DNA of 60,625 nucleotides, counting the filler, from Hausera hauseri (lineage: Eukaryota): assembly GCA_046269625.1 (NCBI GenBank). It is 12 parts of 12 records of this genome, joined end to end, with 100 filler letters (N's around TTAATTAATTAA, not from the genome) between each part and the next. Parts side by side here need not be neighbours in the genome. Positions count along the whole stretch, not along the records: positions 52,539 to 60,625 come from JBJURY010784312.1; 11 more parts are not named here. One strand, given 5' to 3'. A program made the position numbers and the translations under genes. Below the pieces are notes generated by a model. That model saw only the letters and a program-made list of their open reading frames with translations. It searched no databases and was not told the DNA's origin. This document shows positions 8,886-60,625 of the stretch, piece after piece; position 1 is the first letter of the stretch, and every line of letters begins with the position of its first letter.

Positions 8886-8894
8886 CAAAAAAAG

Positions 8895-36699: not shown

Positions 36700-37320
36700 T
36701 GCCGAAATGGTATCCTCCACCCCATTCACTGAGACCCGAGATAACAAGGGGTTGAACGAATGCTTAAAGCAGATATAATTAGGCCCAGCTATAGACCTTG
36801 GTACTCGCTAATCCTTATGTTTAAAAAGAAAGGTACTACAAAACATTGCTTTTGTATTGATTACAGAGCGCTGAATAATCTTATGATGAAAGATTCTTTC
36901 CCATTACCATCAGTAAAAGAAGCTCTAGATAGGCTTTCAGGAGCAATATGGTTTACTACTCTGGATTTACAATCCGGATATTGGCAAGTGGAAATTGAGG
37001 ATAAAGACCGCTATAAAACAGCGTTTAAGACGCACGATGGCGTTTATGAATTTAATGTTATGCCGTTTGGTATTACTACCGGACCAGCTATTTTTACAAG
37101 GATGATGAATAAAATGTTAATGGGACAAGACCACGCTTTAGCATACTTAGACGATGTAATGATAACATTCACGACAGAAGGATATTTAAAAGATATCGAG
37201 CACACATTAATGCGATTGGAACAAGCAAGGCTAAAATTAAACCCAAAGATATGCAAATTGGCTCAAAACGCAGTATTGTACCTTGGCCATATAGTTGGAG
37301 AATGAGGGTCGAAACCAGAC
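36700..37320 (+). pseudogene. Ty3/Gypsy reverse transcriptase (copy H)
   Basis: FCIDYRALN, KDSFPLP, FTTLDLQSGYWQV, KTAF, MPFG, YLDD (37144-37155), YLGH. Confidence 0.97.
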
Positions 37321-37329
37321 AAGCCGTTG

Positions 37330-37940
37330 TTGAACAAGATGTCAGATTGCATGAAGCTGCAAAATTAGAAAGAGCTAAGACACTGGCTAAGTTTATGTGA
37401 ATATTACGCCACTTATGTGCCAGACAACTCGAAAATAAATGCACCTTTATATCGTCTGCTTAAGAAAGGAATTAAATGGAAATGGACCGATGTCGAACAG
37501 AAAGCTTTCGACGAAATTAAGAAAGTCTTAACAAGCGAACCAGTTTTACGATACCCAGACTTTAACTTGTCATTTATAATCAAGACAGATGTCAGTAAGG
37601 AAGGTATCGGATATGAATTAGCTCAACAACGAGATGAAGAATTGGAACATCCAATTGCATATGAAGGACTTTACTTGAAGAAAGCCGAGAAGAATTATTC
37701 TGTTACGGAATTAGAAACTTTAGCCGTTAAAGAAGCACTTCAACATTTTAACGTTTGTGTATCGGCAGAAAATCATAATTGTGTCGGATCATAAAGCTGT
37801 CACGACTTTACCGGGACGAGCAAACAATCCCACATGCAGACTTGACAGATGGATTGAAGAATTCTTTAGATATAATATTGAATTTCAGTATAAGCCTGGA
37901 GACAAACAACTAGATGCGGATGCACTATCGAGATTAAAAA
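37330..37940 (+). pseudogene. RT connection and RNase H (copy H)
   Basis: PVLRYPDF..IKTDVSKEGIG..NYSVTELETLAV..SDHKAV..YKPGDKQLDADALSR. Confidence 0.95.
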
Positions 37941-38189
37941 CTAAGACAAGTGCAATTACGGTAATGAAGAAAGCTCAGCTTGATGAATTAATAGATCGCC
38001 AACGCGCTTTAACGTTGGACAAAGCAATGAAAATCTCAACCGAACAGAAAAGGGATAAAGTCATCCAGCAGATTATAGAATTTTCTAAAAGGGACACAAT
38101 ACGGAAGGGACGACAATTAAAGAAGCACCTACAGAGAGACGGACACAGATATTGTGTCTTGAATGATAAAGGCCGCGAAGGCATTTTAT

Positions 38190-38990
38190 ATTATGAACGA
38201 AAAGGAAGAAAACTGATAGTCATTCCAAAAGGCTTACGAACCGAAGTTTTAATGGCAGAACACGATTCATATTTAGCAGGGCATGCCATAGAAGAACACT
38301 GGAAAGAATATTGAATAAATACTTTTGGCCCAGCATCTATATTGATGTAAAGAATTGGGTAAGTGTTTGTGAAGTATGCGTAACCAAACAGAAGACAAAA
38401 ACTACATAGCAGAATTAAAACCAATCAACGTACCAGACAGACCCATGCAAGCCACGTCAATGGATATCGTAGGACCGCTACCCACGACCCACAAAAATAA
38501 TAAATATATCTTGACTTGTATTGATCGACAAACTCATTTTGTCGAGTTAGTAGAGCTAACCGATCAAAAGGCAGAAGCTGTGGTAAGAATAATTTGTTGA
38601 TATGGGCCCCCAGATCAAATACTGACAGATCGAGGAAGAAATTTTACAAGTGAACTATTTGAAAAGATTTCTAAAATATTTGAAATTGAACAGTTAGCTA
38701 CTACCGCATACCACCCTCAATGTAATGGAATGGTTGAGTCAATGAATGCAACTGTTATACGCATATTATCAACAGTAGTAGCCAAGGACTAAAAAGATTG
38801 GGATGAATCTTTAGAAAGAATTCAATTTGCCATTAATCTCACACAACATCCGGCAACAGGATTTACACAATTCTTCATGATGTATGGACGAGAAGCTGTG
38901 TTACCCACAGACTTAGGAATGACGCCATACACGACAAACCCCGAAAATTTAGAGCAAAACTTCGCAGAAGTGTTACAGACGTGACTACAG
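38190..38990 (+). pseudogene. Integrase (HHCC and DDE core; copy H)
   Basis: HDSYLAGH..CEVC..SMDIVGPLP..YILTCID..LTDRGRNFTS..TAYHPQCNGMVE..YGRE. Confidence 0.95.
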
Positions 38991-39467
38991 AAATATTGGT
39001 GTGAGGATATAATTGAGAACAGAAATTCTAAATTTAAATTAGAAACATTTTTAAATTTAAATTAAAAATTTGATTTAAAAGTAATATTAAAAGTCTGATT
39101 TAAATTTGGGAAATTTGTTTCCAAATAAATATCTTGAATTATAATAAAAATTTTCAACAACTGTTGTTCCTTTTCAATGAGCAATTACAAACGATCAAAT
39201 TCTGATTTAGCGGTTAGACCAGTGGGCGGGGATTTTCCAACCCTACCCAAGCTGGGCGACGAGGTGGACGGCGTGGATGCGAACGCGGCCAACAGTCCTA
39301 ATGTGTATGAAATGGTTTATTAAAGTCGATACAGTACAAGGCAGAAAGTTAAAAAAGTTCTGTAATTNNNNNNNNNNNNNNNNNNNNNNNNNNNNNNNNN
39401 NNNNNNNNNNNTTAATTAATTAANNNNNNNNNNNNNNNNNNNNNNNNNNNNNNNNNNNNNNNNNNNN

Positions 39468-40075
39468 AAAGTACAGGCGCCATATTGAATATGGCACTTC
39501 TGGTTTTCGGTATATGTTTTCGTAATACTATGGAACATCATCTTTTGGTTCCTCATTTTTGTTTCATAGAAATCGACCACTACTATTCCTGATTCTCTTC
39601 CTTTTCCCGTACCGTACTCACCTCCTTTACGATATCCGGTATGCATATCCAGTTTCCCAATTGCTACTTTATATACTCGAATTATTTTTCCTTGCTGAGC
39701 TTCTAGCTCCGTTCCATCCCATCTCAATCTTCCGGTTTCTTTTGCTTGTTTACACTGTTATCGATCTAAATCCATGGGGATTAATGGAGTCGTCGGTTTT
39801 ACTATCGACGAGTGTCCGTGCATGTTTCCGCAGTGGAAAATACTCTGCAACCGTTGCAGCATGCACTCTGTTCCATCTATTGCAATTAATTCACGCTGCT
39901 GATATAGAAAATACTTTTATCTATAGTTACTAACTGGTGAGGTCGGGCATCTTTGCATAATTCCAAATCCACCAAGGAATATCTTTGTTCAATTTTAAAC
40001 TAATCGCAGTCATATACTGTAATTGCACCGAGCTGTCTTATTAACATCATAAGTGTTATTAATTTGATCATCCAG
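39468..40075 (-). pseudogene. Chuvirus-like glycoprotein N-terminus with signal-like segment (copy I)
   Basis: WMIKLITLMMLIRQLGAITVYDCD*FKIEQRYSLVDLELCKDARPH..FHCG..GHSS..GKLDMHTGY..GGEYGTG..VVVDFYET. Confidence 0.8.
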
Positions 40076-43000
40076 TTTGATTCGTTATCTCGCGCTGCGT
40101 TAGCTGATGTTAGATTTCTTACCATATTTTCAATTCTAGAGGTCGGTCTGTTTCCATCTTCGTCGTCAAATAACTTGGACCAATTTATCTCTGGGTATTC
40201 TCTTAGCAGCTTTTCTGATCAATCCAATGGTCCTATTGAATTTATTTTCCTTTAGAGGGTTTTTTTGATTGCCAAGTACAATATTACTTTCCTTAATTCT
40301 TCGTTAATATTCTCTACCATAATTTTCTCGATTAAAACTTCGTCAGATAAGTTGTTTTCGTTCATTTTGAACCGAAATGTTCTCATTATCCTTGCAGCAT
40401 CATATATTGCTTTTTCCTGTTTATCTAGCATCTCGTTTCTCGGTCCTGAATAGTTCACTATTTTGATAATGTATTTCAGTAGCTCGTTTAACACTTCGCT
40501 ATCGGAGTTAATCGCGGGCATGGATAATTGCCTTAGTTCTCTTATCAGAGCTGCATTTTGGTCAATATCATCTCTTATTTTTCTCGGCTTTCCAACTGAT
40601 TGTTTCTGTTTCTGCGCAGTTCGTGTTGCTTCACCAATCGGTACTAAATTTTTATCGTATTGTTCCTTATCTTTCTCACTCTGGAGGTAGTCAAAATACA
40701 TGACGGGTCTCTGACTTCCATAATGTGTCCTACGCAATGTTCATCTCTCGCTTTCCTTATAGCCTTAACGTTTGTTTTTTCGTCGGTAATTATAGCCACT
40801 ATTCGATTTGTTTCTTCTGGAATAATTCCGACATCTATTAGTAGCTCAGGTTCGTCCAGGATTCGACCTCGGAAATACAATCGGTTTTACTTCTCTAACC
40901 GTTGTTATCGTTTTACATTCAATTTCTCTCTCTTCCATCCAATCGGCTGATATTTTTACCTTGATCGTCGTTTCGGTTTTTGTCTTTAAGAAATCAGTGT
41001 ATTTCTTTATTAATAGCCGGGGCACGGAGTTGTAGACGACATTTTCACTTGATAATTTAGTCAATGTAGGAATCAACTGCCTCAATATGGTTTCGGTCAT
41101 GCTAACGTTAATGTATTCTATTAATTCTCTCTCGGCTAGTGCGGGATTTAATAGCATTCCCGCATTAAATCGCTGGTCGATTGGAAAGGTATCCATTGGT
41201 TGAAGTTGGATGTGCGTCTTGTGATTTTGGTTGTACAAATTTTCTAAATAAGCATCCCATCCTGAGTCATTTGTATCATCCGGAAGTCCATAATCTAACA
41301 ACACTGTAGGCGCGCTTGGCGCATTTTCACGGATTTCGTTCAACCTCGGCTGTACTTCCTTCATCAAGTTAGTGCGAAATTCTACTCCGTTTCCACACGC
41401 AAGTTGTATCGCTTTTTAGTGTTGGTTCTAATTCCTCTGCAGGAAATAACCCTTTTCTTTCATAATTCGTTAATTCGGTCGTCACATCCGTTAACCACCT
41501 TTGTACGAATTCTCTTTTATTCGTTAACTCTGATTGCGTGATGTTATATTTATTCGTATAAGCCTCAAATTCTTTGCCTAATTCATCTAGCTTCGTAGCT
41601 CTTTGCTTTGTGCGAATTCGCAATTTTTTTATTTCTTTGACCTGAGTTGTCAATTGTCGTGTCTTGTCGTCATGTATTTCTGCCATTGTCGATAGTAGTG
41701 ATATTATTTCGTGCATTTCTTTTAGAGTTCTCGAATCGGGATCTATTTCTTCGATCAGTCTTTTTACGAATTTAGCTTCGTCGACTGTTAGGCGATGACC
41801 TTTGATTACATGTATTAATTCAGCGTGACAATTCTGGTCGGTATCTGATGCTCACTCAAAAGGACGATGTAGATATTTAAGTACTTCTTCTAATGCAATC
41901 CGATGATTTAGGCAAATATCCAACGTCGATAGATCACATATTGACATTTCATCTATGGGTCTCGTTACCAGATGTAGTATTCCTTCTATGCGAACGCCTT
42001 TTAGTTTCGTTGATAAGGAGGAGATCCTTTCCTGTTTCGCCTATAATTCAATTTCTTCTATCATGGTGTACAATTCTTCCGTGAGTTTGATTTCCTGATT
42101 TTCGTTCATAATTCTTAGTCTCAATAATGCATTAAATTCAACTCGAAGGTTTGCCTCTATTTTGTAAACATCTAGATTACGCAGTATCTCTTTTAGCTTT
42201 TGTTTTAGCTGTTGTTCATATTCTGAATACTTCCTTAGACGATATTTCGCAAAATCAACTAATCTGTCTAATAGTTAAATCCATTCTTTGAGTTTGTTAT
42301 CTATCATTGGTTTCTCATTTATTACATTTTTTAGTCGTTCGTAGGTGTCGTGTAATTTATCATCTGGACCTTTAATATAGCCCGTTACTTTCTTGACGTA
42401 GTTAATTTCCTTCTTGTATTTGACGAATTCTAAAATACATGTTTTCGTGATATTTTGTACTTCTTGATTTTCTACATACTTTATCTTATTCCTACATCTG
42501 TAGATTTTGGAGCGCCTTTTATCCTGTGAGGCTATGCGAATTCCTATATCCCCATATTCCTGTGGTGCGTTGAACGCAATCTAACACATTTCCATTATGA
42601 GAGGAATGTCTACAGGTTCTATGCCTAGTATTGAAAATTCGTTTTCATCCAATTTGTATATTGGTTTATTTTTGAGGTGATAGATTACTGCGATCTCTAT
42701 TTCTACCATTAACCTTTCTAAATTCCGTTTTGTTCGCTTCTGCTTCAGATCCGTCTCTAGAATCCTTAATATTCCTTAGGCAGTCGCCACTTTATTCTTA
42801 ATTTCTAACTCCTGATTATATCATGTGTCGGTGAAGTTGATTCCGTATTTTATCCATAGATCCTATTTTTTCTTCCATTCATCAATCGACTTCTCCATAA
42901 TTCCGTACGTTTGCTCTGGTTCTTTCTTTTTGTTAACATCTTCCTCAAGGTATTGTTTGAATTCTTTGTACATTCTTTCGGCGAATTGCTGTTCTTTTCC

Positions 43001-43300
43001 TGACACATCTACTTGAGTTTTTATACGCCTTAATTCGTCCAGATTGTGACTTATCGTCTCCGTATCTGTTGGTGCGATCCTAATTTTCCAGATTTTTCTG
43101 ATCCTCCACACCTTTCCGTCTGACCTTTTAAGTCGTTCCGTGCCATCAGTCTTACCTTCGCTATCGGGTAATGGACATATCTCATTTATCTCACTGTTCG
43201 CGTCTCCTACTGTTACGCTTGTAGGAGACGTTCTTCTGCCAAGTTTTCAGATTCAGCGTCCAAGTCTACACTGGGTGATACTACTGCTATTTCGACTTCG
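40076..43300 (-). pseudogene. Unknown helical/coiled-coil domain X (copy I)
   Basis: ORF pieces 42863-43111, 41369-41716, 40846-41367, 40644-40880 and 40252-40737 each match copy L (e.g. QRFNAGMLLNP / QRFNVGMLLDP; EELRKVILYLAIK / EELRKVLLYLAIK). Confidence 0.8.
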
Positions 43301-43360
43301 TTCACCTCTTTTGTCTGCGCGAGCTTCTCAGGCACATTTTTCTTGCGAACCATGTTATTA

Positions 43361-43861
43361 TTACCATGTTATTATTATCATTACATCCAAATCTGACGGA
43401 ACTGATTTTTCTGCGGCTCTACGTTCAGTGTCATCCTTTTCCTTGGCCATATTCAAAATTCGCAGTGTACTAATGTAGCTATTTCCTAACTTTTTCAAAG
43501 CAAACGCAAACTGGGTGACTGATTCGCCCTTCTGTTGCGTCCTATTTTGATATACCATCAACTTTTGCTGTGGAGTTACGGTTGGCAGTAATTTCCTATT
43601 TAATTCTCCTACTAATGACGACCAATCTCTCTTTTCTTCGTCCGTCAACTCGGCGTAGGCATCTGCGGCCAAATTCGTCAAATAAAGCGATAATCGTCTA
43701 ATCATCTGACGAGGTTTTAACCCTATGCCTTCGGCGTGAAGTTTATATGTTTTCAAAAATTCATTTAATCCTTCCGGATCACCGTCGTATGCCGGTAAAT
43801 TTAATGATTTGTATGTGAAAATGTCCAGTTTCTGTCTGGCTGTAGTATTATCAGCTGCCAT
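43361..43861 (-). pseudogene. gag: Retrotransposon Gag capsid domain (copy I)
   Basis: LPAYDGDP..LSLYLTNLAADAY..DWSSLVGEL..RTQQKGESVTQFAFALKKL (MHR-like QxxxExVxxF). Confidence 0.88.
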
Positions 43862-44193
43862 TTTATTTGTATTTGCGTCTGTTCTGTTTTCTACTTTACG
43901 TCGGTCGGAACTTTAAAATTTACTTCTTGATCTTGGTCTAATAAACCTGTTAAATTTTCTCGTGACTCGGATAATGTGCGCTTTTCGTCTGAATTTGTTC
44001 ATACTATACTACTGGTTCATCTTATGTTTAAATTTTCCTTACCGTTTAGGTTTAAATGTTCTGATCTACTATGCTTCTCAATATTTGAGTTTCNNNNNNN
44101 NNNNNNNNNNNNNNNNNNNNNNNNNNNNNNNNNNNNNTTAATTAATTAANNNNNNNNNNNNNNNNNNNNNNNNNNNNNNNNNNNNNNNNNNNN

Positions 44194-44900
44194 AACGAAC
44201 GAACACTATAATATAGAATACTCCAGTCTAGAACCATCAAGGATCTGTGTACCAGGTGATGATCGACAAATATTATTGACTTTGCAACTACTATCCACAT
44301 GTCCCAATATATTCTGCATAAGTAATACTAATTTTGACACCCTTGATGCACCATTACGCGCATCTTATGATGGTATACAACTCCCCGAGCATATTAAAAC
44401 AGTTCGATTCAGCCCTATACATATTTCATTTCATGTCCATGACCATCATTCGATGGTGACACCGCCAATTGTTTTCCGATCACAAAAACATCTCTCAAGT
44501 GCGATAATCTCAGACTACAATACCTCTATTGGTTACAGATAATACGCCGACCGAATGCACCGTCTCTCAGACAAAAAACAGTAGCGTTGTGCCATATAAC
44601 AACTGAGGAACATTCCCTTAAAAAACCTCAGATAACAACCAAGAAAGACGGAGTACTATCAGCTAAAATCAAATTACCAGACACAACAGAAAAATAAGCC
44701 ATGAATCATTGCTACTAATAACTATTATACCCACTCTTCTCATTATGATTATATCAATACTTACGTTGACCCTATGTATCAGAAGACGCCGACAGATTAA
44801 AAAATACACCACTCGCACCAAATACGAATTGGAAATGACCGAAGACCTCACAGGATGATTCTACCATTGAGTATATTAGTTTGAGGTATACTAAATTCAT
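44194..44900 (+). pseudogene. Type I membrane protein, paralog 1 (partial)
   Basis: DDRQILLTLQLLSTCPNIF..PEHIKTVRFSPI; C-terminal TM LLLITIIPTLLIMIISILTLTLCI followed by RRRR. Confidence 0.6.
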
Positions 44901-45299
44901 TAACACAACTAACTCTAAGTCCTCAGAAAATAGCCATAAACCTATCAAATCAGGTATTACCAGATACATTTTTAGATTTTATGAAATTTCTAAAAAGAAA
45001 TCCAAAGACAGAACCATGAGATATTCAAGAAATTGTACAAGGAAACCTTTTCATTCAGTATAACCATACAAAAAGATGCCTACTTATAAAATCTTCCCCT
45101 GAGAATAAAACAAACAATGACAGACCTATAAAAGAAGAGTGGGGAATACTGACACTCTATGGAAAATAAAAAGTAATGTGTACACCTACGTCCACTCACA
45201 AAGAAAACTGTTCTAAGTTACCCCGGGATCTACCTATTCAGTACAAATACATACATCAAAAAGTAAGAACTTACCAATCACAAAAATCGGGCAATTAAA

Positions 45300-46624
45300 A
45301 CAATGATACCCACAGAACAGAAGAGAGTTACGCTATCTTTGACGGATAATTCACCCGAACAAAAGGAGCAAACTAATATCGACAGATTATTCTTAGAAGA
45401 AAGAATATTTATAGGTCAACCTGATTATAAGAAGCAATGCTTACCAGTTGAATGGGATAGAAAAATACCGAAAAGGCAGAATAATGCAAATAACCGCTCA
45501 ATATGCCAATATATCCATTAGCAATAATAACATCCACTACTCCAGAGAACATAATCAATCAACTTATATATTTGCACGACCAGATCAGAAACATTCACTA
45601 ATATTTGCTGTTTCGATTTCTAAATGGTATATGGCGATCCACGTTAACTGAAATCGATAGGAAGGCACCAACAATTCCATGCACCCCCTATATTGTAGAT
45701 AATAAACGAATAAAAACAAAAATATTTAACGAAAACGAAATTTTAGTGGTTGTGCCTCAAATCCGTAGAGCCCATTACGCCCTATCGTGCGCCGCGAAAC
45801 GTTATAATGAAGAAGTTTATACTTTGGAGGTCACAAGTCCTCGACCTCCAATATCATGTTCAAAACACGATAATCGACAAATACTTCTTACACTACAATT
45901 ACAACCATCCTGCCCAAATACCTTTCGTTTAAGTAGTTTTCGCTACTCTGTACACAACAAAATCCCGTATCTAATAGCAGGATTAAGACAAACTCCAGAA
46001 CAAATCAAAACAATTCCATTCAAACCATTGGACATTTACCTTCAAGTGAGATCCGACCGTGTAATGTTTAGCTTGCCAAATCCTGACTTTATCGTCACAC
46101 TGGAAAATGCTAACGACGCCTGTTTTCTAGTTACTAGTACTTACGTTGAATGCACACAATTGATATCTTGTTATCCTTATTTAGCCCATATTCAGTTACC
46201 TTATTATGACCCGTTATGAAAACCAAAAACGGTCGCGCTGTTAGAAGTCACTACACTGAAAAATGGAGTAAATTCTTTGTTCAGATTTCCCACACTCAAT
46301 GAAATAATGAAAAGAGGAAAATTTATTTTTAGAATATGTACCAATTCTCCTAAAGATAATAAAATGCTGAGCATCATATCATCGTCAGTTCAACCAATAC
46401 AACAATTTCAAATAGATTATAATTTATTTCTGATAATCGTAATAGCAGTACCCATCAGCGTTATACTTATCATAGCAACAATCATTGCTACATGCGTATA
46501 TAAACATAAACACAAGAAAAAGAATATACTCCGTCATAAACCAACACTTGAGAAGAGATCATTTGAAATTCCTCTAACTAATTTAAAATATGACTTTAAA
46601 ATTTACGGTGGTTGTCAATCATGA
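45300..46624 (+). pseudogene. Type I membrane protein, paralog 2
   Basis: DNRQILLTLQLQPSCPNTF..PEQIKTIPFKPL; TM LFLIIVIAVPISVILIIATIIATCVY followed by KHKHKKK. Confidence 0.65.
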
Positions 46625-46692
46625 AGGAGGAAGACTATTACACTTATGTCGAAACCCACTAGGAACAAATTCTACCAAAGGCGGAACGTTAG

Positions 46693-47400
46693 ATGTTAGG
46701 ATGTACTGATGAACCAGCTGACCCAATAGACTATACAACAGTAAATAACGCTGGAACAACTCCATTAATGCTAGCAGTAGCATCAGGAAACGAAGAAAGA
46801 GCTAGAGAAGCTATAACTCAATTAGGCGATGAAGCAGCTGAAACGCTAAAATTCCAAGATACAAATGGCAACACCATCATCCATTTAGCCATTATGAGCG
46901 AATGTCATGATTTCTTTACACTCATGCTCATTCAGTCACAAGCACCATTGCACAGACCCAACGTAAATGAGGACATTCCCTTACTACTCGCTATACGTCA
47001 TGGTCGACATAACCTTGCAATACTAATATTCGATTATGCCTAGGACAATAAAGTATTTCAAGCCATTTTCCAACCACAATTACGCAGTACACCATTACAT
47101 CATGCAATATTATTCAAACAATTTCTCTTATTGGAAACCTTCCTAAATAGGAAATTCGGCAACGGAACATACCTATTTGACGTAAACTACGCCCATGACT
47201 CGTATGAGGAAACTCATAACTGCTCTTTTGACTAGAACCTATGGGGCAGTCTCCGTCCTGATGCAACGACCCGATATCCACCCAGAAACTCACTTATCGA
47301 AATATAATAATCAATGACATTCTGATACGTGACCCAATGATTAGCTCCTTCGAACGAGAACGCTTGTTAGCCATTATGCGTCGTGAAATTGTAATATAAA
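46693..47400 (+). pseudogene. Ankyrin-repeat protein, intronless
   Basis: GTTPLMLAVASGN, GNTIIHLAI, EDIPLLLAIRHGR and, after a stop, STPLHHAI. Confidence 0.85.
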
Positions 47401-47679
47401 CAATTTGACATTTTGCGAACTCTTATCTGCGTGTATATTTTAGTATGACTATTTATTTCAGTATATTGTTATCATCTTTATTCTTAATCACTGACGTTCC
47501 TTATCTCGCACAACTACTGACACTCTTTATCTTAGCCATTGTATATAACTCATGATTACTATAGTACCGCATGTTATTATTTATGTAATTTATATTCGAT
47601 TAATGTAAATAAACTTTTGTTATTTTGTATTAAGACTGAAAAGGGAACCCCATATTGATTCACAACTTTTTGTGACGCA

Positions 47680-48207
47680 TTGGCGTCTTACCTAATTGTA
47701 GACCAATGTTATCATACTTTTTCCAATCAAACAGCTATCCCAAGTAACCTAAAGTCTAAGAAACTCCAACTCTATCCCAGACAAATGTGTATACAGCAAG
47801 CATCAACCAATATCTCCAATTCACTATCCAAATTGATTCTCACCGACAAGCCACAAAAATTCGATATCATTGCTATTCACCTCACCAATGGCAAAGTAGA
47901 TGTCAATATCAACTATAATGATCTTATATTTGACATTAATCACGAACTACTTGATAACTCTAGTGTAATTACTATCCCTCCTGTGGAATTATTATCTTTT
48001 ACAATTTCCTCTTTAACCAACTGTATATATGCTGTGGAAGTAATCCAACCAAAATTTAAATACACCCACAATGAGGACTTTAACCAATCAATACATATAT
48101 TCAAACCGCTCTCATCAATAAACGAATACATTTCAGTATCAGAAGGATTATGCCTATCAGATTTAGAACCCCTATTCATCTTCGTATCTTATAACCACGT
48201 CACCACT
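47680..48207 (+). CDS. Hypothetical protein, truncated by contig end
   Basis: About 175 open codons with composition similar to the neighbouring genes. Confidence 0.4.
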
Positions 48208-48350
48208 NNNNNNNNNNNNNNNNNNNNNNNNNNNNNNNNNNNNNNNNNNNNTTAATTAATTAANNNNNNNNNNNNNNNNNNNNNNNNNNNNNNNNNNNNN
48301 NNNNNNNAGTTTTTTAATTGTACGCCTCAAAATAATTGGTTGATTTTTAG

Positions 48351-48689
48351 ATGTTCAAACGTTACAGCGAATGTTTGGCTCAAAGCCACGAGCCGGAAAA
48401 TTGCCACAGTATTATGAAGAAGTACTTTGGCCATCTATACAACAGGGTTCAGTATTATATATGCCCTATATGTGAGGTAGTGTGCCAATCCAAATATGAA
48501 GACTTTTACAATGTCCATAAACAGCACTTGATTTCCTTCATCGAGTCGAAAAAACAAATATTCAGTGCAAATATGCCAATAACGACTTTCGTGCCAAAGG
48601 AAAATCAAAGATGCAGTTCATATGTGTATTACACATGTGTAGTACACAATCCTCAGAATGGCCACAATACCATGAGGAGCTATTATTGA
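48351..48689 (+). CDS. Hypothetical Cys/His-rich Maverick accessory protein
   Basis: ORF with CPICEVVC..H motif just upstream of pPolB. Confidence 0.4.
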   Translation: MFKRYSECLAQSHEPENCHSIMKKYFGHLYNRVQYYICPICEVVCQSKYEDFYNVHKQHLISFIESKKQIFSANMPITTFVPKENQRCSSYVYYTCVVHNPQNGHNTMRSYY

Positions 48690-48783
48690 CACATTCAATA
48701 GGATCATATATTATATCTGCCCAGGATGTGAGGCTGTATGTGATGGAGAATAGATATACTTTTATGATGATCACAAACATCAT

Positions 48784-51700
48784 TTGACTGACTTTACATC
48801 AAAGTCAAAGAAGGTCATATTTAATGAGCAGAATCCTGCTTTGGCAGAACAGCCAGTTGTACAGCTCGCTTTAGCAGCAAAGCCCGATAAAGGACTAAAA
48901 CGCATATCAGAAGTAGCAGCAGATGCTCCATCAAAAAGCCAAAAACAGCGATCAGTCGATGTAGCTGCACTGAAGAGCAAAATGTGGCGATATTTCATAG
49001 CAGCAGTGGGGCAGATATCGCTCCATGAATTCCTGGAATAATCAAAGAAGGAGGCAGCAGGAATTCTCCTGGACAACTTGTTGGAGCTAAAGGCCCTTAA
49101 GGTGAACTTCAAATTGGAAGTCACCTTCACCAATGTCAAAGGAGAGCTGTCTAGTAGAGCCTTCAAGATAAAGAAAAGGCCACTATTGAAATCCTTTAAC
49201 ATTAAGGATTTCATTACAGAGGATTATGTAAGGCTCATCGGCGAAGCTGAAGAAAGCCAGGACAAGAAGAGCGGCTGGACTTTAGCAATAATAAAGGGGT
49301 TACTTGTGCATGTGCTCAAGTATTCTCTCATAAGAGGCAGCTCCTACATACCGCTTCCTGAATGGATAGTTAAAAATGGCATGCATCAATGTCCATAATG
49401 AGGACAGCATGTGCTTCATGTATTCTATTTTGTCAAAACTGGTCCAGAATCAACATAGTGCTTCCCGAATTTGGATATATGACAAAGTGCAGCACACATA
49501 CGACTTCAGGTGTATTTGATTTCCGCCAAGCCTAGATGAAGTCGTGAAATTTGAAAGCGTGAACATCTCCATGAACGTCTTCGGATTGGAGGAGGACAAA
49601 TTTTATCCCTTACATGTGTGCAAGGAGGAATTGCAGGATCATAGGGATCTGCTCCTGCTAGACGATGGAGAAACGAGGCATTTCATCTGGATCAAGAATT
49701 TTGAGCGCCTTGTAGGATCCCAAATATCCAAGCATAAATCAAAGCTGGAAATATGCAAAAGATGCTTTACCCATTTCAGTGGAGACACAGCCGCAGAAAA
49801 GCTGGAGGAGCACATAACCTACTGAAATACAAACTATTGCATCCGAGCAGAATTCCCCAAGGAGGATTACCTGGAATTCAAGGAGTTCGAGAAAATGCAG
49901 AAGGTGCCGATTATAATATATTGTGACTTTAAGGTCATCCTCAGTCCAGTTCACAGCTGCAGCTCTAATCCACAGCAAAGCAGTACTACAGCATACCAGT
50001 ACTATGAGTTATCATCCTACTGCATGTATGCCAAAGGACTGGACAAAGAACCCTACTTATACAGGGGTGTAAATGCAGCAGCACATTTTATGCAGCGTCT
50101 GGAACAGTATTCCCACAAACTTGAAGACATGTTGCAGCAGCATAAGGGCTACATGGTGATGTCGCAGCAAGAAAAATGTGAATAACACAAAGAATCAACA
50201 TACTACTTATGCAGAAAGCCATTCACATGGGGCAATCACAAAGTCAGAGATCATTGCCATTTTACAGGCATATACCGAGGCGTAGCGTACAACAATTGCA
50301 ACTTACGCTGCAAGACATATACATATGTTCCTGTGGTATTCCGTAATCTTAGTGGATACGATTCCCACTTCATTGTTCAAGAAATGGGTAATATTGAGGG
50401 GAACATTGATGTGATTCCAAATAGTGAGGAGAAGTACATCACATTCACGAAGCATGTCGGCCGCATCAGATTTCGCTTCATTGATAGCTTCCGCTTCATG
50501 AGCTTGTCACTGAACAGCCTCGTGAAGAACATTCCAGGTGATGAGCTCAAGGAGACGAAGAGATTCTTCCCTATGACTATATAACGTCATGGAAAGCACT
50601 AAATGAAGATGCTGACTATGAGCACGCCCAAAGAGTATTGCATACCTTCCAGTGTAGGACAATAGGGGATTACAGTGATATCTATTTCCTCACAGATGTG
50701 CTGTTGCTTACTGATGTTTTCGAAAGCTTCCAGGATCTGACCATTAAGAACCACAAGTTAGATCCAGCTCATTTCTTTACAGGTCCAGGAATGAGTTGGG
50801 CAGCTATGCTGCGCTATACCGGCATAAGGCTCCAGATCTTGAAAGATTTCAGTGTGGTCCTCATGATTGAGAGAGGCATCAGGGGTGGAATATGCCAGGC
50901 CATTCACAGTTACAGTGAGGTCAGCAACAAATACATGGCAGATTATGATCCATCTAAGGAATCCTCATATATATCATACCTGAATGCCAACAATCTGTAT
51001 GGATAGGCAATGAACAACCCATTGACGTATGATAACTTTCAATGGGTTGGGCAGCCGCAAGTTCTGGATATTGAAGGTATAGATCCAATGGAGATATGGG
51101 CTGCATACTGGAGGTGGACGTGGAATAGCCACATGGCATCCACACAAGGCATGAGCAGCTGCCTTTTCTCCCGGAGAACAATAGGCCACCAAATGGTAAG
51201 CATAAGAAGCTGCTCTGTCACCTCGAAAACAGGGAGACGTATGTAGCCCACTTCATAAATCTCCAACAAACCATCCAAAATGGACCCCTAATCATCAGGA
51301 TTCATCGGACCCTGCAGTTCAACTAGTCCGAATGGCTGAATCCATACATAGACCTCAATACCCAGTTGATGGCCAATGCCAAGAACGAGTTTGGAAAGGT
51401 CCAATTAAAGCTGTATAACAACTCGACTTTGGCAAAGCTATGGAGAACATCCGGAACCGGATAAACATCGAGCTGGTATGTGACTGGAAGAGGGCAAAGA
51501 AACTCATCGCTATGCCCAACTTCCACAGTACATAATCTACACGGAGAACCTGGTGAGCATCCACTGCTCAATACATCACTTGATTTCAACAAGCCTATAT
51601 ATGTGGGTATGTCTATATTGGATTTATCCAAGACCTTGATGTATGTATTTCACTAGAAGTTATGGTCCCCACATTCAAGGAGCTGCAGCTAATGTACATG

Positions 51701-52160
51701 GACACGGACAGTTTCATATACTACATCCAAACAGGTGATGTCTTTGAAAAGTTTACAAAATTGGCGCAGTATATGGATACCTCAGACTATCCGAAGGATC
51801 ATCCAAATTACTCAACCGTCAACAAGAAGGTCCTCGGGAAGTTTAAAGACAGAGTGAATGGGAAGATCATCACCCGTTTCGTTGAGTTGAGATCAAAAAT
51901 GTACGCCATCGATGTAAGTGGTCATGTAAAGAAGTGAGCTAAGGAAGTTCAAAGGGCCACATTAGCTAAAGACATAGGCTTTGTAAATTTTGAGAGAGTG
52001 TTGCGGAAACAAACTCACATCGTCAGCGAGATGAAGAGGATCCAGTCCCGGGAACATCAGATATCTACTATGAAAGAAAAGTCTCGATTGGTTCCATGAC
52101 AAAAGGCACATTTTTGAAGACGGAATCCACACACTACCTCATAGACATGTGGCATTGTAA
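48784..52160 (+). pseudogene. Maverick protein-primed family B DNA polymerase, near full length, decayed
   Basis: RGSSYIPLP; ExoI IIYCDF; RDHCHFTGIYRG..NNCNL insert; ExoII NLSGYDSHF; FIDSFRFM; ExoIII TDVLLLTDVFE; ERGIRGG; motif A YLNANNLYG; motif B KLYNNS; motif C YMDTDS; LGKFKD; LRSKMYA. Confidence 0.96.
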
Positions 52161-52538
52161 ATATTTTTATTCATTGTTATTCTTTGTTTAATAAATGTTG
52201 TATAGAAATATCGTGTTGTCTTCTTGATTAAGTAATGTGGAATATAGGATAAGGCCAAGTAAAACTAAGTAACTATTATATAGGTTAAGACCAACTAATT
52301 TCATAACACATTTATTTAGTAACAATATTACTTTGACATAACGCTAAGCACTTTTTTTAAGCACAATGTGAACTATGTTCACGATAAATACATGTAATGT
52401 TCTTTTGTATAGTTACCAATTTGTTACATTCATATTCANNNNNNNNNNNNNNNNNNNNNNNNNNNNNNNNNNNNNNNNNNNNTTAATTAATTAANNNNNN
52501 NNNNNNNNNNNNNNNNNNNNNNNNNNNNNNNNNNNNNN

Positions 52539-53324
52539 CGTTTTGTAGCGATCTTCCTCCTCTATCTCTACTTGCCAATATCCAGATTGTAAATCGAGCG
52601 TGGTAAACCATTTAGCTCCCGAAAGTGTGTCTAAAGCTTCCTTTACTCATGGTAACGGAAAAGAGTCCTTCATCATGAGTGTATTTAATGCTCAATAGTC
52701 GATACAAAATCGGTGCTTATTGGTGCCTTTTTTCTTAACCATGGGTATAGGAGAATACCAAGATCTGTAGCTTGGCCTTATTATGTCGGCCTTTAACATT
52801 GGTTCAACCTCTTTGGTTATCTCTGGCCTTAATGAGTGTGGCAGAGGATACCATTTCGGCATCTTTTGATCCTCTAGATCTATTTTATCGTTGAAACCGG
52901 GCTTTTTCTTAAGTGGAATCGTTAGTCTTAAAGTTTTGGCTCGGCCAATATTTTCTTCATCTCTCGCGATGATCGAGCTATAGCGACAAAGTAATTCGTA
53001 GAATCGACAGTATGATTCTGGTGAAAATGTAATCTCCACATGGGGTGGAAATTCGAAGCCTTTATACGGTTTCTCCTCGATCGCAATTGATGGCACTCTA
53101 TACGTGTGTCCTAGAGTGGTATTGGCGTACAGTTTGGTTGGAGTGAGCGCATTCCTCGCTATTCTGATTGGCACGCGGCCTGTTAATACTATTGTCAAAA
53201 CATTGCTGAGCACGAGGTTTGGATCGAGCAATTCCTTTGGTTCAAAATATATTGGCTGATCGTCATCCTGATGTATCTGATCATGTATTAGAATTTCTGT
53301 TCTAGATGGTATGGTTTCATCCAC
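52539..53324 (-). pseudogene. PR-RT linker and reverse transcriptase N-terminus (copy L)
   Basis: PKWYPLP..MLKADIIRPS..SPIPMVKKK..RFCIDY..KDSFPLP..FTTLDLQSGYWQV. Confidence 0.95.
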
Positions 53325-53399
53325 TGGAATCCATAATTCTCCAAATTTTCTGTCTTTAGTGGTTTTAACTCGTTTATTGGGCCAAGTTCTATCAACTTG

Positions 53400-53735
53400 C
53401 CTGCACTGAAATCGATTGCTATATTAAGTAGTTGTCTCAATAAGTCACACCCTAACACTACATCATCCGTTAGTTGCTCCATTACTGAAAATTCATGATG
53501 GAAGAATTGTCCCATTATGTAAATTTCTGGTTTCCAACGGAATTTACTTTCCGATGATTGTCCGAAAGCTCCAATGTTTCCTGGATCAGTCGTGGGAGGT
53601 GGATATAATTGTTCCCGTAGGAATTGTGGTATCGAATCACATTTTATCAGTGATATTTCAGACCCTGTATCTATTAGTGCGAAAACTTCCTAACATTCCA
53701 ATTGCATTTTTGCTAAGGGCCTGCCTTCAATTACT
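53400..53735 (-). pseudogene. Retropepsin aspartic protease (copy L)
   Basis: IEGRPLAKMQLEC*EVFALIDTGSEISLIK..DVVLGCDLL. Confidence 0.92.
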
Positions 53736-54399
53736 GTTCCGTAATAACTTAGTGCTGTTTTTGAGTGTCGTATCGTAGACACTTTGTAGCCGTTTATGGT
53801 AACTTCAGTGGTTCCACCTGGCTGCTCGATTACTTGTCTTAACTGTCCAATTGTGTATAGTTCGTTATTCGTGCCATTTGCATTTTCTACTCCTTGGCTT
53901 CTAACTGGCGGCTGAACATCTTGGTTTCGGAGATTGCGTGTCTCACAACTTCTGGTAAATATTGACTGCATTTGGTTTGGTCTAGGTACTCTAGGTGAAT
54001 ATATTATACCGTGATAATCGATCGCGAGGCGACGATGTGGGGCAGACGTTCTTTCCGTTTCGTGGATCTTACGCAATATCCCATAGCGTTTTGCTTCTTC
54101 GTAAGGATCCTCTAAGTTGAACGGTTTCCGATAAACGTCTGCCTGATACGAGCTCATTGATTGTTTCTCTCAATCTTCATATATATGTGCCGTTGGCTGC
54201 AGTATTGGTAATGGCAGTTTCATAACAGAGTAGTTTTTGTGCCTACTTGGCCTAGAGATTACATGTCCTTCCCTAGGCTGGTCATCGTCAAAAATTATTT
54301 CTTCTTGTCTTGCTATCTATGAATTTTTGCCTGTAATCGAATATGCATCTTTTACGTTTTCGATTATGGTAGCCAACATGTCGTTCCACAAGGTTTTCC

Positions 54400-56245
54400 A
54401 TTTACTCTCTTCATAAGCTTTTAAAAATTTGTCGAAGGGCGTAATAATAGCTGTTAAAATCTTGCACGAAAATCCTGTCATGGTGAATATCTCATATCCA
54501 TTTATGATTCCTTGAATTATGGCTTTTATTAGTTGAACTAAAAAGTGTATCGCTAAAAAACCTGACGCGGCCTGCCCGAATATCAGAAATCTTCCCCAAA
54601 TTTTGTATAAAATTTCTCTAGTTACCTTCCTGTAATAGCCAACACCGAGTAATGACTCCCATTTCGCCTGGTAGCGCGAGTCCCCTAGTATCGTATGCAT
54701 CGCTCTGTTTAATTCATATGGACGCTGGCGGGAAAAGCCAGAAATTGTCTAAACGCCTCTACTTCTTTTGGTCGGTAAATACCCTTAGTGGCTGTATCTT
54801 GAAACTTATCATCGGTTATTCCTTTTATCAGGTTTGTACACGTCAGTTTGGTAGGTGGTACGATAATACCGCCGTTCGGTAAACTTACCCAGTCGGTTTC
54901 GCTACGTCTAAACATCGGCTCTCCTAAGCTGGTTTTACAGTCTCTTAAAATTGTCGGTTGAGTGGTATTTGTCAACAACACTCTGGTAATTGGTGTTACT
55001 AATCTCGGTACGTCTTTATATATATCACTGGAAGCTCTTGTATACACCTTTTCGCTTCACATTAATCGGTACGTCTTTCCTCTCGCACTCATACGTCAAT
55101 AAAACCCCTCCTGTTACTCGTCCAAAAACACCTTCCTTCATCGGAATTATTGGCGATGCCAACTCACGATTGGCGTATATTAGAGCTAGTTTAGTTCTCA
55201 TGATTTCCAAATCTAACTTGCAGTCGTTTGTTATCATCTTGTGGCATAACTCGGCTATTTCGGCTTGTCCTTTATAGTAAAAATAGTCGCCTCTGTTCTT
55301 CAAATAGTCTTCAATCCGGATGTCTTGAGTCTCGAGTTTGAACGTTCTGGTGTTTATTTTTGTTTCGGCTGCGAAAAATGCTTCATAATTGGTGGCATTC
55401 ATTACAACGTCGCATCTGCTGAGCATAGCCTTCTTTACAAATTTTAATCCATGAGTATCAGAAATCAGTATCGTAAGTGTGGACTGCTCGGCTATATCAT
55501 CTCGTGTTTTAGAGTTAGTTTCCGTGCTACTTATATATCGTTTCCCTGTCGTCTCATTGAATTTAAGTTCTTTGATTCTGATAAAATTGCAATCAGTCTT
55601 GGCTGGGGTTCCAAATTACCACGGAACTTAGAAGCGGGCATGTGTCATCCTAAACGTGACACTTGTGGTTCTTGGTGTAGAGTTTAGTAACGCTATGAAA
55701 CATCACTTTCTGTATACGTATTTCAGTTTCGTAGAAATCCACTATTACGATGTTCGACTCTAATCCCTTTCCAGTACCGTATTCCGCACCGTAACAATGT
55801 CCGGTATGCATATCCAGTCTTCCTGCTGCTAATTCATAAACTCGAATTATTTTCCCTTGCTGCATTTCCATTTCCATACCGTCCCATTTTATTCCCCCCG
55901 TCTCTCTAGCTTGCTTACAATGCTGTCGCTCTAAATTCATCGGAATCATTAGGGTTGTTGGCTTGATTATTGATGAGTGTCCATGTACCAGTCCACAGTG
56001 GAAAATGTTGCGAGATCGCCGAAACATACATTCTACTCCGTCCAGGTAACTAGTTCGCGTTGTTGATTTAACACAACTTTTCTCTTTTGTTTCTAATCTG
56101 TGGGGCCTCGCATCTTCGCACATGTCCAAGTCCATTAACGAATATTTTTGGCCAAGTCTAAATTTGTCGCAATTATATACTGTGACTGCACCCATTTGTT
56201 TGATTAACGTCATCAAGGTCAAAAGTTTGATTAGCCAGTTTGATT
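54400..56245 (-). pseudogene. env: Chuvirus-like (class III-type) envelope glycoprotein, complete but disrupted (copy L)
   Basis: Signal-like WLIKLLTLMTLIKQMGA, then VYNC..YSLMDLDMC..FHCGLVHGHSSI..AGRLDMHTGHCYGAEY..NDCKLD..GGVLLTYEC..TPITRVL..GIYRPKEVEAFRQFLAFP..TM. The cysteine and motif order matches chuvirus G as I recall it. Confidence 0.82.
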
Positions 56246-59200
56246 AATTTCCTCTCCTATTTCCAGTTACGTTTCATAGCACATCTTCAAATCTATTGCC
56301 ATTTGAGAAGAATTTACTTTGATATTCTTCTTCTTTCCTTAATAACTTCGACCAGTTCACCTCCCGGGGTAGTTTTCTGGCAGCCTTCCTTGCCAAGCTA
56401 GTAGCCTTGTTGAATTCAATTTCCCGGTTTGGGTTAGTTTTGATTGCCAGATATAGTAATACTTTTCTTAATTCTTCTATGGTATTTTCCGTCATAATTC
56501 TATCAATCACCATCTCATCGCTTAAGATACTTCTGGATAATTTACACCGTAAGTTTCTCATGGCTTTGGCTGCATTAAATATAATCCTCTCTTTCTCATC
56601 TAATATATCACCGTCGAGATTAGAGTGGTTTACTGTTTGTATCAAATCCTTCATCAATTCGTTCAGTTCCTCATTATCCGCACTGAAAGTTGGTATAGAC
56701 ATCTGCCTCAACTCCTTAATTAGGTCTCCATTATAGTCGATTTCTTTTCGTATATTCCGTGATCTGCCGACAGGGCGCTTCTTTTTGTTACCGCAGGTAT
56801 ACTGCCGTCTTTTGGTACTAAATTTCTATCGTATTGTTCATTATCTTCGTCTGTCTGCAGGTACTCGAAATATACTGTTGCATCTCGTACTCCTATTATT
56901 CGTCCTACCTGCTTTTCTGCTTTAGCCTTCCTTATAGCCTCTTCCTTTGTTTGGTTTCTAGCGGTAGTTACCACTAATCGGTTTACCTCACCTGGGATAA
57001 TTCCGACTTCTGTTAATAATTCTGACTCATCTAGGATCATTCGTCTGAAATAAAGTCTATAACTCAGCTCATGGGCGTATCCATTAGCCTTTATCTACAG
57101 CAATACATCCTTTACAAAGGAGCAGGTAGTGAACTGTTGCTCCTTTTCCACCATCCAGTCTGATACTATCTTTACTGGGATTATTTCCTCCGCCTTCGTC
57201 TTTAAGATTTTAGCATATTCCTTAAGTAAGAGCTTAGGTACCGTATTAGAAATTGTGCCTTCGCTAGCTAATTTAGTTAAAGTGGGAACTAGACGTCTTA
57301 GTTGATTTTCAGTGAGGTTCATTTTAATTAATTGAATTAATTCTTTCTCGGTTTGTACCGGATCCAGGAGCATTCCTACGTTGAACCTTTGTTTTGGAGA
57401 ATATACCTCCGTTTTATCCGATCGTATTGGAGTTTTTGGATTCTCGGTAATTATTGAGTCAAAATATGCATCCAAATCTGGTTCGTTTTTATCGTCTGGC
57501 AATTGATAATCCCTTGACAGTGCATCGGTTGGCCTGTCCACACTTGCGGTCCATGTAGTTTTCCTGAGTTCTTGTAGTTTTTGTTGCATTTGGACCATTT
57601 TCGTCGTTCGGAAACATCGTCCATTAGCGGACGTTTGGTGGAGCAGTGTTAACAACAAACATAATTCTTCGGGTGAAATGAACCCCTTTTCTTGATATTT
57701 CTTTAGTTCCGACGTGACATTTCTTTGCCATCTTTGAACAAATTGTGACTTGTCAGCCTTTTCTGTTTCTGTAAGGGCGTATTTGTTTTTATAGGCTTTG
57801 CGTTCTCTAGCTAATTCATCTAATTTTATCGCTCTCTGTTTGGTATTAATGCAAGTTTCTTCGACTTGCTGTATTTATACCAACAATTGTCTTAGTTTCT
57901 CGTCACTAATTTCTGCCATTTCCGCCATCAGTAGTGCTAATTCGTACGTCTTGTTAATACTGTTTGAATCTGGATCTTTCGCATCTAATAACTTTTTTAC
58001 AAATTTGATCTCTTCAAAATTGAGGTGGCGGTCGTTCTTTATTTTAATCAGTTCGGTGTGAAGTCTGCTCCGTTCCATCTCTCCATTTTTGGGGACGATG
58101 TAAGAAGTGAACCCCTCTTCAACGACTGATCGGTCTTCGGGACAACAGTCTAAGGTTTCAAGATCTCGGATCGAAATTTCTTCGATAGGTTTGGCTGCAA
58201 GTATCGTATTCCTTTTAAGCGTACATCTCTCAGTCGCGGATAGAAATCACAAGTCGCATTTCGTTTCCGTACGAAATTTGTTTCTACGATCATCATATAT
58301 TTATCATCTAATATCATCATTTCTTGTTTCTTCTCCATAAAGTTCAATTGGCATAATGCCTCAAATTGAGTTCGGATGTCAATTTCTGCTCTTATTGTAT
58401 CTAGATTTCGAGCGTCTTCTTCTAACAGTTTCTTTACCGTAGGTTCGCTCTCCGGAAATTCGCTCTTTCGATTGTTAATCAGTTTACTCAACCTGGTTAT
58501 TACTTTGGTCCATTCGTTCAGTTGATTAGCGATTTCTGGCTTTGCCAATATTGCTTTATCTAACGTTTTGTAAGCGTCTTTTAGCTTATCATCCGGACCT
58601 TTAATGAAATGTATGATCCGGTAGACATAATCAAACTTGTCCTTGTACTTATCAAACTCGAGGATGCAAGCCATAATTATTTTGTGTGTTTCCTCGTTAT
58701 TGGTTTACATAATTCTATACTTTAGACCATATATCTGAGACCGTTTTTCGGTTTCGATCCTAATACGATTTTCCAAACTTGTATATTGCTTTGATGCCGT
58801 CGAAGCGACCTTTATCATTTCCATCAAGGGTGGAGTATCTATGGAATCTATGTCCAACATCCCTAGGTCATTTGCATCTCGTTCATTCATGACACGCTCC
58901 AAATTACGTACGGCTCTTTTCAATTTCGGGTTGGCTTCTAATGTAATTAATAGCGACTAAGCTTAATTGATTTTAGCTTCAATGTCTCGAGTAATTTTAT
59001 CCCACGTCTCTGGGAATTTTGTCTTGCTTTTGCTGCATCGTTCTAGTTCGTGTTTCCACTGAGTTAGTGTTTCCTTTGGCACTTCTTCGGGCTGATCTAA
59101 GTCTATAGCTTCGCTTAGTTTCCTTTCATTATATAATTTCATCTTTTTGTATAATCTTTCTATAAACTGCTGCTCCTTAGCGGAAATATCCACTTGTTCA

Positions 59201-60040
59201 CTCATTACCTTGAGTTTTTCTACGTTCTGTTGAACTGCCTCTGGGTTTAGACAGTCGGTTCTCATCCTTTTTTATTCATTGGCATTTTTCCACGAGCGTC
59301 TGATTTTCCACTTTTTAGGATCGAGTTTCTCTTCTTGTTCTATTTCCTCTTCACTAGTAGGTAAGGGACATATGTCGTTTATCTCATTTATAGATTTAGC
59401 TAGCTCATCCATTTCGCTTGGCGTAACTAAATTAATTTCCGGAACGTTCAAGACGCATTTGGTGTCGCTTTCTAGCGCGATTTTGCTTTCTCTCTTTGTG
59501 CTTTACTTCTCCTGAGTCATAGGGGATTTCGAACGATCCTTGCGTTTTCGTCTCAATGATGGGCTACGGCCTCTATTCTTGGTAATTTTAAGTATAAGTG
59601 GTTCCAGAAGTTCTTCTTTTTCGTCGGCCTCAGCCTCCTTGGTTACTTTTTTATAGTATACTCGGGTTCTACATCTAAATCTACTTCATCCGGGGTCTCA
59701 GGTTTTCCTGTTTCGTCCGACTGCTTGCTTGTCAAAGGAATGTTCTTTTTCCGTGTCATATCAGTAAGGCTTGGTGGAGCGATGGAGTGTTCATATTCCG
59801 TTTCAGGTTCACGCAAGTCATGGTAAACTTCTAATAATCGTAATTTGTGTTCGTACTCGTTTTTAGCCACTAAAACTTTGGGGTCCTTAGTATCGGGCTG
59901 GGCCTTTAAGAAGCATCGTAAATCATGTATCTCGATGATCATACCCGTGTCTCTACGGACACCGTAGATTGCTTCTAAATATTTGTTTTTAATTACACTA
60001 ATTTTACTAGGTTCGACAAACGAAACATTTTGCGGGTTTG
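56246..60040 (-). pseudogene. Unknown helical/coiled-coil domain X, ~1,250 codons (copy L)
   Basis: Chain of co-oriented K/E/L-rich ORF pieces from 59942 down to 56274, homologous to copy I. Confidence 0.8.
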
Positions 60041-60041
60041 G

Positions 60042-60430
60042 ACAGGATCGCGCTATGTTAAATTCGTGTCCACATGTATAACAAATTAGATTACCGTTTT
60101 TTCCGATTCTCTGCCGGCCATCTTCATTTTGTGGGGATTTCGATCTACTCGGATTTCTATTGTAGCCTTGCTACGATGGGGCTTGTTTACAGTCCACATA
60201 CTGGCGGTTATCGTAATTCCGGCTATTATTCTGACGATTAAAATTTTTGGAGCCCTCTAGGCGCCTATCTGTATGATAGTTTGATTTACTAGAGGAACTA
60301 TTACGACTATTATCGAAATTCTAATTACTGTATCGATCGTTTTTGCTATCATAATTCTTGTTTCGATCCCCATAATTCCTGTTAAATCGTCTATCATGAC
60401 TTTATAGATATTTTACGACAGATTGTTTTG
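60042..60430 (-). pseudogene. gag: Gag C-terminus: R/N/S-rich region and zinc knuckle (copy L)
   Basis: CYTCGHEFNIARSC at 60042-60083 (CX2CX4HX4C spacing with H replaced by N), preceded by an RNYDR-type low-complexity stretch. Confidence 0.8.
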
Positions 60431-60625
60431 GGTCGTCTGGATATCGGAAGACAAAAACAGCGACTAAATAAGTATCGAGATGCTCTTGTGAATATGGCTA
60501 AGGCCATGAGTAATGCAGCAAAGAAACGAGCTCTGAAAAATTACTTTCCCGTGGAAAAAATAAAATGGAAAAGAGGGAAAAAGAAAATCGAAAACCAACA
60601 ACAATATTATGCATCGCCAGAAATT

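Follow-up and report, generated by a model that had tools for sequence, protein, structure and literature searches.

The glycoprotein-like stretch in copy A described below is very probably the broken env gene of a highly repeated Ty3/Gypsy element with the order gag, insert, glycoprotein (G), protease (PR) and reverse transcriptase (RT), the whole likely having formed one polyprotein of the Burro type. We infer a single frame from gag to integrase (IN) rather than read it, since no copy in the window is intact. The window, the whole 60,625-nucleotide stretch of Hausera hauseri DNA analysed here, consists of twelve short separate contigs with N spacers in between, and the copies of the element in it (A, B and C) carry the following parts.

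52539-60625, minus strand: contig of copy A, which carries the flagged G
60018-60320, minus strand: A, N/R/S-rich Gag linker and degenerate CCHC-type zinc knuckle (nucleocapsid), from tblastn
57191-60017, minus strand: A, ORF-X, about 950 charged codons with stops and frame changes, from long, mostly open frames
56963-57190, minus strand: A, likely ubiquitin-like module with one stop inside, from hhalign profile comparison
56331-56660, minus strand: A, helical domain where the Bcl-2-like module of relatives sits, from a model; candidate identity
54320-56243, minus strand: A, chuvirus-G-like class III glycoprotein in four frame pieces, from PF24664, fold, cysteines and hydropathy
53816-54319, minus strand: A, linker from G tail to protease in a frame common to both, stops inside, from frames
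53369-53815, minus strand: A, aspartic protease, from PF00077 (E 1.2e-4) and tblastn with P0026
52539-52853, minus strand: A, RT start truncated by the contig end, from PF00078 (E 2e-5)
33309-39367, plus strand: contig of copy B, a sister copy of A's element
34378-35320, plus strand: B, C-terminal half of G, from PF24664 (E 1.4e-9) and 70% DNA identity to A
35849-38999, plus strand: B, PR, RT, RNase H (RH) and integrase (H2C2 and core) in Gypsy order, broken
39468-44093, minus strand: contig of copy C, a further diverged copy of A's element
39470-40086, minus strand: C, N-terminal part of G in frame with upstream sequence, 65–73% amino-acid identity to A
40087-43368, minus strand: C, ORF-X including ubiquitin-like and Bcl-2-position segments, from frames and profile comparisons
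43484-43852, minus strand: C, Gag capsid domain, from tblastn (P0001 Gag, E 5e-13; P0006 Gag, E 1e-8)

G lies downstream of gag and upstream of pol. Copy A reads, in order, Gag linker and degenerate knuckle, ORF-X of about 950 codons, G, linker, PR and RT, and copy C supplies the Gag capsid upstream of ORF-X. Copies B and C share 66–70% DNA identity with A over blocks of 0.9–1.4 kb (A vs B, 68–70%), and the RT start of A is 82–90% identical in amino acids to that of B. Contig A stops within RT, with PR, FCIDY and LDLQSGYWQV present and YLDD, RH and IN absent; the full RT-RH-IN sits in contig B, with the C-terminal half of G directly ahead of PR. The linkage of G to Gypsy pol is thus drawn from two copies, A and B, taken together. 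In A, one frame serves both the last part of the insert and the beginning of G; in C this junction lies within a single open frame, an ORF at 40218-40003 running from ORF-X into the signal-like segment of G. The tail of G in A is likewise in frame with the linker and PR that follow it. None of the three copies in the window is intact, and all are dead.

The zinc knuckle of A (60101-60018) was recovered by tblastn with residues 191-218 of P0001, the zf-CCHC of that protein (E 0.008), while the Pfam scan made no zf-CCHC call on it; likewise, no Gag family was called by Pfam on the capsid piece of C. The capsid part of A's Gag falls outside contig A, whose final 240 bases (60386-60625) hold an unrelated small plus-strand frame, implying that the gag capsid part of A was replaced or cut. 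ORF-X of A gave no family in the Pfam scan at E≤0.01 and has no counterpart in the intact relatives searched against the window; its amino-acid identity between A and C was 39–51% in the compared pieces, with synonymous differences (pS) saturated. A repeat search of the window found no long direct repeat, the contigs ending inside the element, and neither an LTR nor ankyrin or post-integrase cargo could be traced to copies A, B and C.

The four frame pieces of A's G (minus strand, 56243-55653, 55615-55028, 55056-54712 and 54748-54320) are separated by breaks near 55.63, 55.04 and 54.73 kb. A preliminary description of this DNA had listed a series of chuvirus G motifs, and these were found in the stated order on the minus strand from 56243 to 54320, distributed over the four pieces. 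All four matched PF24664 (Monjiviricetes_fusion) at consecutive positions of its 653 (8–181, 260–390, 410–496 and 522–601; E 5.5e-12, 2.6e-6, 4.3e-3 and 9.9e-15), the middle two falling below the curated cut-off when taken alone. Hydrophobic peaks stand on either side of G, at about 56234 and 54559, 558 codons apart; they correspond to an internal signal-like segment (~56243-56180) and a transmembrane segment (~54560-54440) followed by a tail. Of the 14 cysteine columns conserved across 15 aligned intact relatives, A retains 12 and leaves two unfilled.

The fold of G is of class III, the class of herpes gB, baculovirus GP64 and Thogoto glycoprotein. A model of the stretch 56825-55653 had a mean pLDDT of 65, higher within the G part, and its N-terminal third of G matched, among the matches listed, only those three proteins, with a best E against class III structures of only 4e-3. 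The model of an intact relative, P0003, matched gB at E 3.5e-9, with 105 PDB matches at E≤0.001, and by VIA at Z 9.3 (259 residues, rmsd 6.4); among predicted viral structures, it matched those of Tacheng tick virus 4 and of chu-like glycoproteins (E 4e-31, 15–21% identity). Both models thus put class III proteins first, strongly for P0003 and weakly for the fragment from the window itself, and together with the profile match over the whole length of G they support the earlier proposal that A's G is a chuvirus-G-like class III fusogen, with fusion activity putative. It differs from chuvirus G in its low identity and in its setting, within a retroelement polyprotein and downstream of an internal signal-like segment. 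No match was found for the G piece in a PDB sequence search, for the first G piece among longer proteins in a word-seeded protein search (0/92 candidates), or in IMG/VR scans.

Intact relatives of the element carry G inside a single chain. A phmmer search of 1.8 billion representative proteins with the G piece gave 25 matches, all on the G part, of which eight were at least 1,130 aa with G internal; the window piece was 22–33% identical to G proteins carried by retroelements. PF24664 was present in 14/14 scanned relatives, and G, RT, RH and IN occurred in one chain in three of these 14 and in 4/7 matches of a second protein search. Relatives' DNA holds single open frames of 3,703 codons (L002) and 3,426 codons (L001), and P0029, with a frame the size of that in L002, comprises CCHC, G, PR, RT, RH and IN. 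Hydrophobic peaks ~555–575 residues apart flank G in all nine scanned relatives with a whole G. The summed score of the window pieces was 396 bits with a profile built from 15 G proteins embedded in polyproteins and ~140 bits with PF24664, a difference that speaks for descent inside a retroelement lineage; in the G tree the window sequence was placed among polyprotein-embedded G proteins, unstarred.

Several relatives carry further parts. An extra membrane protein ends the polyprotein of L001 and L002 (hydropathy done for P0029), and both have a separate downstream RNase T-type exonuclease gene (L001 10617-12107 and L002 12085-13473; PF00929 E 1e-5 and 1e-3). In P0026, P0002, P0004 and P0028 the region between G and RT contains ankyrin repeats, C2H2 fingers and several protease-like domains in tandem, as many as seven of them in P0026. 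One intact G-PR-RT-RH-IN polyprotein, P0008, is filed at NCBI under a Flavobacteriaceae metagenome bin and is probably a mis-binned eukaryotic contig.

G was under past purifying selection. Between copies, pN was 0.15 and pS 0.77 in G (333 codons), as compared with 0.14 and 0.76 in PR-RT (311 codons), and pN in the insert (ORF-X) was 0.29 (547 codons); codons were picked via local protein alignment, which biases these values toward conserved parts. With pN low and synonymous sites saturated (pS 0.76–0.85), G was constrained before its decay as firmly as the enzymes. In one public run (X1; one study), which may be related to the source of the window, each of the 30 bins was covered by a total of 15,451 contig pieces, of which 12,674 were <95% alike, indicating a large, diverged repeat family, and records 4 and 5 of this run bridge the ORF-X/G junction. 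There was no RNA run among the listed runs with element sequence.

Ahead of G, intact relatives gave weak Bcl-2 matches just upstream (P0003, P0028, P0001 and P0004; E 1e-3, 1.5e-3, 0.055 and 0.2) and weak ubiquitin matches (P0001, E 0.03; P0029, E 0.018). Profile comparison makes a ubiquitin-like module in A likely: a two-copy profile of the piece aligned by hhalign with the stretches of eight relatives at E 0.0028 (score 19.6, above 40/40 shuffles), a modest match for a piece chosen by eye. In hmmsearch over the window the ubiquitin-like match had top rank at an iE of 0.11, not significant, and the piece of A had no match in Pfam or among PDB sequences. For the piece at the Bcl-2 position, the hhalign score lay within the shuffled range (3/40 shuffles higher); the hmmsearch match was again not significant, the top-ranked match falling at the expected place in C for both modules. 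Two of the seven control profiles in the hhalign comparisons, X6 and X7, each held one out-of-frame row. The Bcl-2-position piece of A is helical in the model (pLDDT about 50–65), and in a VIA comparison the window model aligned with BAK1 over 111 residues (Z 5.2) amid generic helical matches, none with Z≥8. Bcl-2 proteins were not in the best 50 VIA matches of a relative's model, which holds only part of the module, and the Atlas at 0.9 gave no match for the piece.

The preliminary description had RT, RH and IN as plainly Ty3/Gypsy; the type stands, but the full set lies in contig B and not in the flagged contig A. The order PR-RT-RH-IN was seen in copy B, where pol matched PF00077, PF00078, PF17919, PF17917, PF17921 and PF00665, and A shows PR and then the RT start. 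The best solved structure for the RT-RH of B was Ty3 RT (4OL8, E 7e-59), with further solved matches of caulimovirus type at 2e-42 and retroviral at ≤9e-22, and its named neighbours among the matches listed in the RT search were gypsy and 17.6-type proteins. Pfam scans of window pieces and relatives found only Gypsy-type matches and none of the families that we take, by name, to be Pao-type. As the trees hold no BEL/Pao reference, the exclusion of BEL/Pao rests on family profiles and nearest matches, and on sequence grounds these comparisons support a pol of Ty3/Gypsy rather than BEL/Pao type. PF24664 occurred in 0/120 of the best of 493 RT-search matches, a search whose limit of ≤2,000 aa excludes most G polyproteins.

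Whether copy B descends from the same lineage as the intact elements bears on an alternative, in which a Gypsy element unrelated to Burro independently came to carry a related class III env upstream of pol, possibly in separate frames. In the pol tree (IQ-TREE, 37 rows selected from 85), seven G-carrying polyproteins and P0036 formed a clade (100/99); copy B was a long branch outside any starred group, and in FastTree runs it stood on a long branch beside unrelated rows. This position of B apart from its close relatives in free trees would suit such a separate origin, as would the lack of a counterpart to ORF-X in those relatives and the report that GAG-ENV-POL elements, in the accessible part of that source, are not one clade (Chary and Hayashi, eLife, PMC13524379). 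Also outside the eight-member clade is P0019, an intact G-carrying polyprotein. Against this, the top three of 85 rows by Pol identity to B belong to the clade, and a tree forcing B into it was not rejected (p-AU 0.52, scoring 0.8 log units higher), the composition of the group having been adjusted after a tree was seen; moreover, G falls, if unstarred, among polyprotein-embedded G proteins, and a likely ubiquitin-like module sits at the same position. Identity to the nearest relatives is about 30% in G and 45% in Pol. Given the G profile score, the long unsupported branch of B and the forced tree that was not rejected, kinship of copy B to the close-relative clade is likely, and the separate origin unlikely.

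Two further explanations concern how G came to lie beside pol. The preliminary description suggested an independent env acquisition and possibly an infectious lineage, and the direct and recent uptake of a chuvirus G gene into a Gypsy element would agree with the PF24664 match of the window G and with the best viral structural matches of the intact relative, which are chuvirus and chu-like G. The difference between 396 and ~140 bits nevertheless favours descent within retroelements over such a capture, and the relative is only ~15–21% identical to viral G, as against 22–33% between the window piece and retroelement G; three copies with synonymous saturation all have G in place, and every copy is broken, so that recent capture giving a new infectious lineage appears very improbable. 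Chuvirus G fossils often adjoin Gypsy fragments without clear capture, as far as the available text of one report goes (Dezordi et al. 2023, PMC10084718), and G might on that precedent be a chuvirus-derived endogenous fragment lying by chance in a dead Gypsy element, or an assembly chimera. This is contradicted by the collinear copies, as three diverged copies have the same junctions, further copies in run X1 bridge the ORF-X/G junction and intact relatives have the fusion in one frame; we regard it as scarcely credible.

The window also contains remains of other kinds. Decayed pieces at 48308-52438 and 7269-9301 resemble Polinton/adintovirus genes; among them are presumably a protein-primed DNA polymerase B, judging by its motifs (the one polymerase piece that was scanned had no Pfam match), and an adenovirus-type protease (PF00770, E 0.004). 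A broken single-pass membrane protein followed by ankyrin repeats lies at 45602-47043 (PF12796, E 2e-12); its contig, 44194-48207, was considered as the 3′ end of the element and rejected, having no match to the C-termini or downstream genes of relatives. Decayed Gypsy RNase H/integrase fragments of other families occur at 2889-4028 and 24425-24865. A laminin-G-like exon at 12909-13334 (Atlas 0.85–0.87, a lead only, with no Atlas match at 0.9) adjoins a very highly repeated stretch at 13.3–14.6 kb and presumably resembles vertebrate collagen XXIV/XXVII. Run X1 holds part of this exon at a depth of 3, with 3 differences in 219 bases.

The known hosts of the Burro-type layout are flatworms. A more far-reaching version, which we hold to be rather improbable, is that the element belongs to a separate, deeply split group of Gypsy elements that have env inside the polyprotein and a 950-residue cargo of their own, and that this group is massively amplified in a host outside the flatworms, possibly a chordate. 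The chordate idea arises because run X1, which has the element family, also holds the contig of the laminin-G-like exon at low depth, but shared presence in a run does not place the element in the genome of that exon. Were it true, Burro-type enveloped elements with a class III fusogen would extend far beyond their known hosts.

For the Burro-type polyprotein that we favour, a route of expression may be proposed from the anatomy of the element and general knowledge of membrane polyproteins. Gag and the insert would be synthesised in the cytosol; the hydrophobic segment ahead of G would act as an internal signal, sending the ectodomain into the ER, and the second hydrophobic segment would serve as a stop-transfer anchor, so that PR-RT-RH-IN would fold in the cytosol on the G tail. 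The chain would be cut by signal peptidase and by the element's own protease, with Gag and Pol staying on the G-bearing membrane. Budded particles bearing the class III trimer would fuse with adjacent cells within one animal and in this way reach germ or stem cells. Cell death might be dampened by the ubiquitin-like and Bcl-2-like modules, and the signal segment left on the Bcl-2-like module might anchor it as the tail does in cellular Bcl-2. In the three copies in the window this mechanism is inoperable.

The combination of Gypsy pol and chuvirus-like G, presented beforehand as a surprise, and the env-in-polyprotein layout are already published, to judge from the available portions of PMC13524379 and PMC6431247. 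With that claim in print and the copies dead, what they add is one data point on the phylogeny of env and the range of its hosts. The element enlarges the sample of a rare arrangement in which the envelope protein lies inside the Gag-Pol chain, and suggests that this arrangement persists in a lineage distant from the intact relatives, where G was constrained like the enzymes. Such constraint supports fusogens as long-term working parts of retroelements rather than recent viral debris.

Among known systems, Burro elements of planarians carry an env that lies between gag and pol and shares their frame (Arkhipova and Yushenova 2019, PMC6431247, which cites Grohme 2018 and Jurka 2007 on Burro/GYPSM1 giant gypsy-like LTR elements). 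As far as that text is available, they resemble the window element in the position of env, a CCHC Gag, many copies and the existence of decayed copies, and have a ubiquitin-like and then a BCL2-like module before env, for which the window offers a modest ubiquitin-like match and a Bcl-2-like candidate only. One gag-env-pol frame is a Burro feature, read in L001 and L002, whereas the window copies only share frames at junctions. The Burro env is mononegavirus fusion-protein-like, as is the window G, Burro having been compared by description only; within what is available of PMC6431247 it is likened to baculovirus/paramyxovirus-type proteins, while the fold of the window G is class III. The window element further differs from Burro as described there in its ~950-codon insert, and no MATH, BIR, ankyrin or dUTPase was seen in its short contigs.

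Comparable in glycoprotein type are the 114 arthropod gypsy elements with an Anakin-type glycoprotein, found via Anakin baits, and the GAG-ENV-POL gypsy elements of Nematoda, Bryozoa and Platyhelminthes, including six Schmidtea elements, that PMC13524379 reports in its accessible part, the main text of which does not contain the words polyprotein, Bcl-2 or ubiquitin. Its Ty3/gypsy ‘errantiviruses’ with HSV/gB-type env combine, like the window element, Gypsy pol with a class III Chuviridae-like glycoprotein; they are intact whereas the window element is decayed, and the likeness is by description, not by sequence. Anakin itself denotes mosquito BEL/Pao elements with a chuvirus glycoprotein (Dezordi et al. 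2020, PMC7642597). On the available description, Anakin and the window element share the glycoprotein family and an LTR retroelement as carrier, but the pol of Anakin is of BEL/Pao type, whereas that of the window element is of Gypsy type, with G placed before it.
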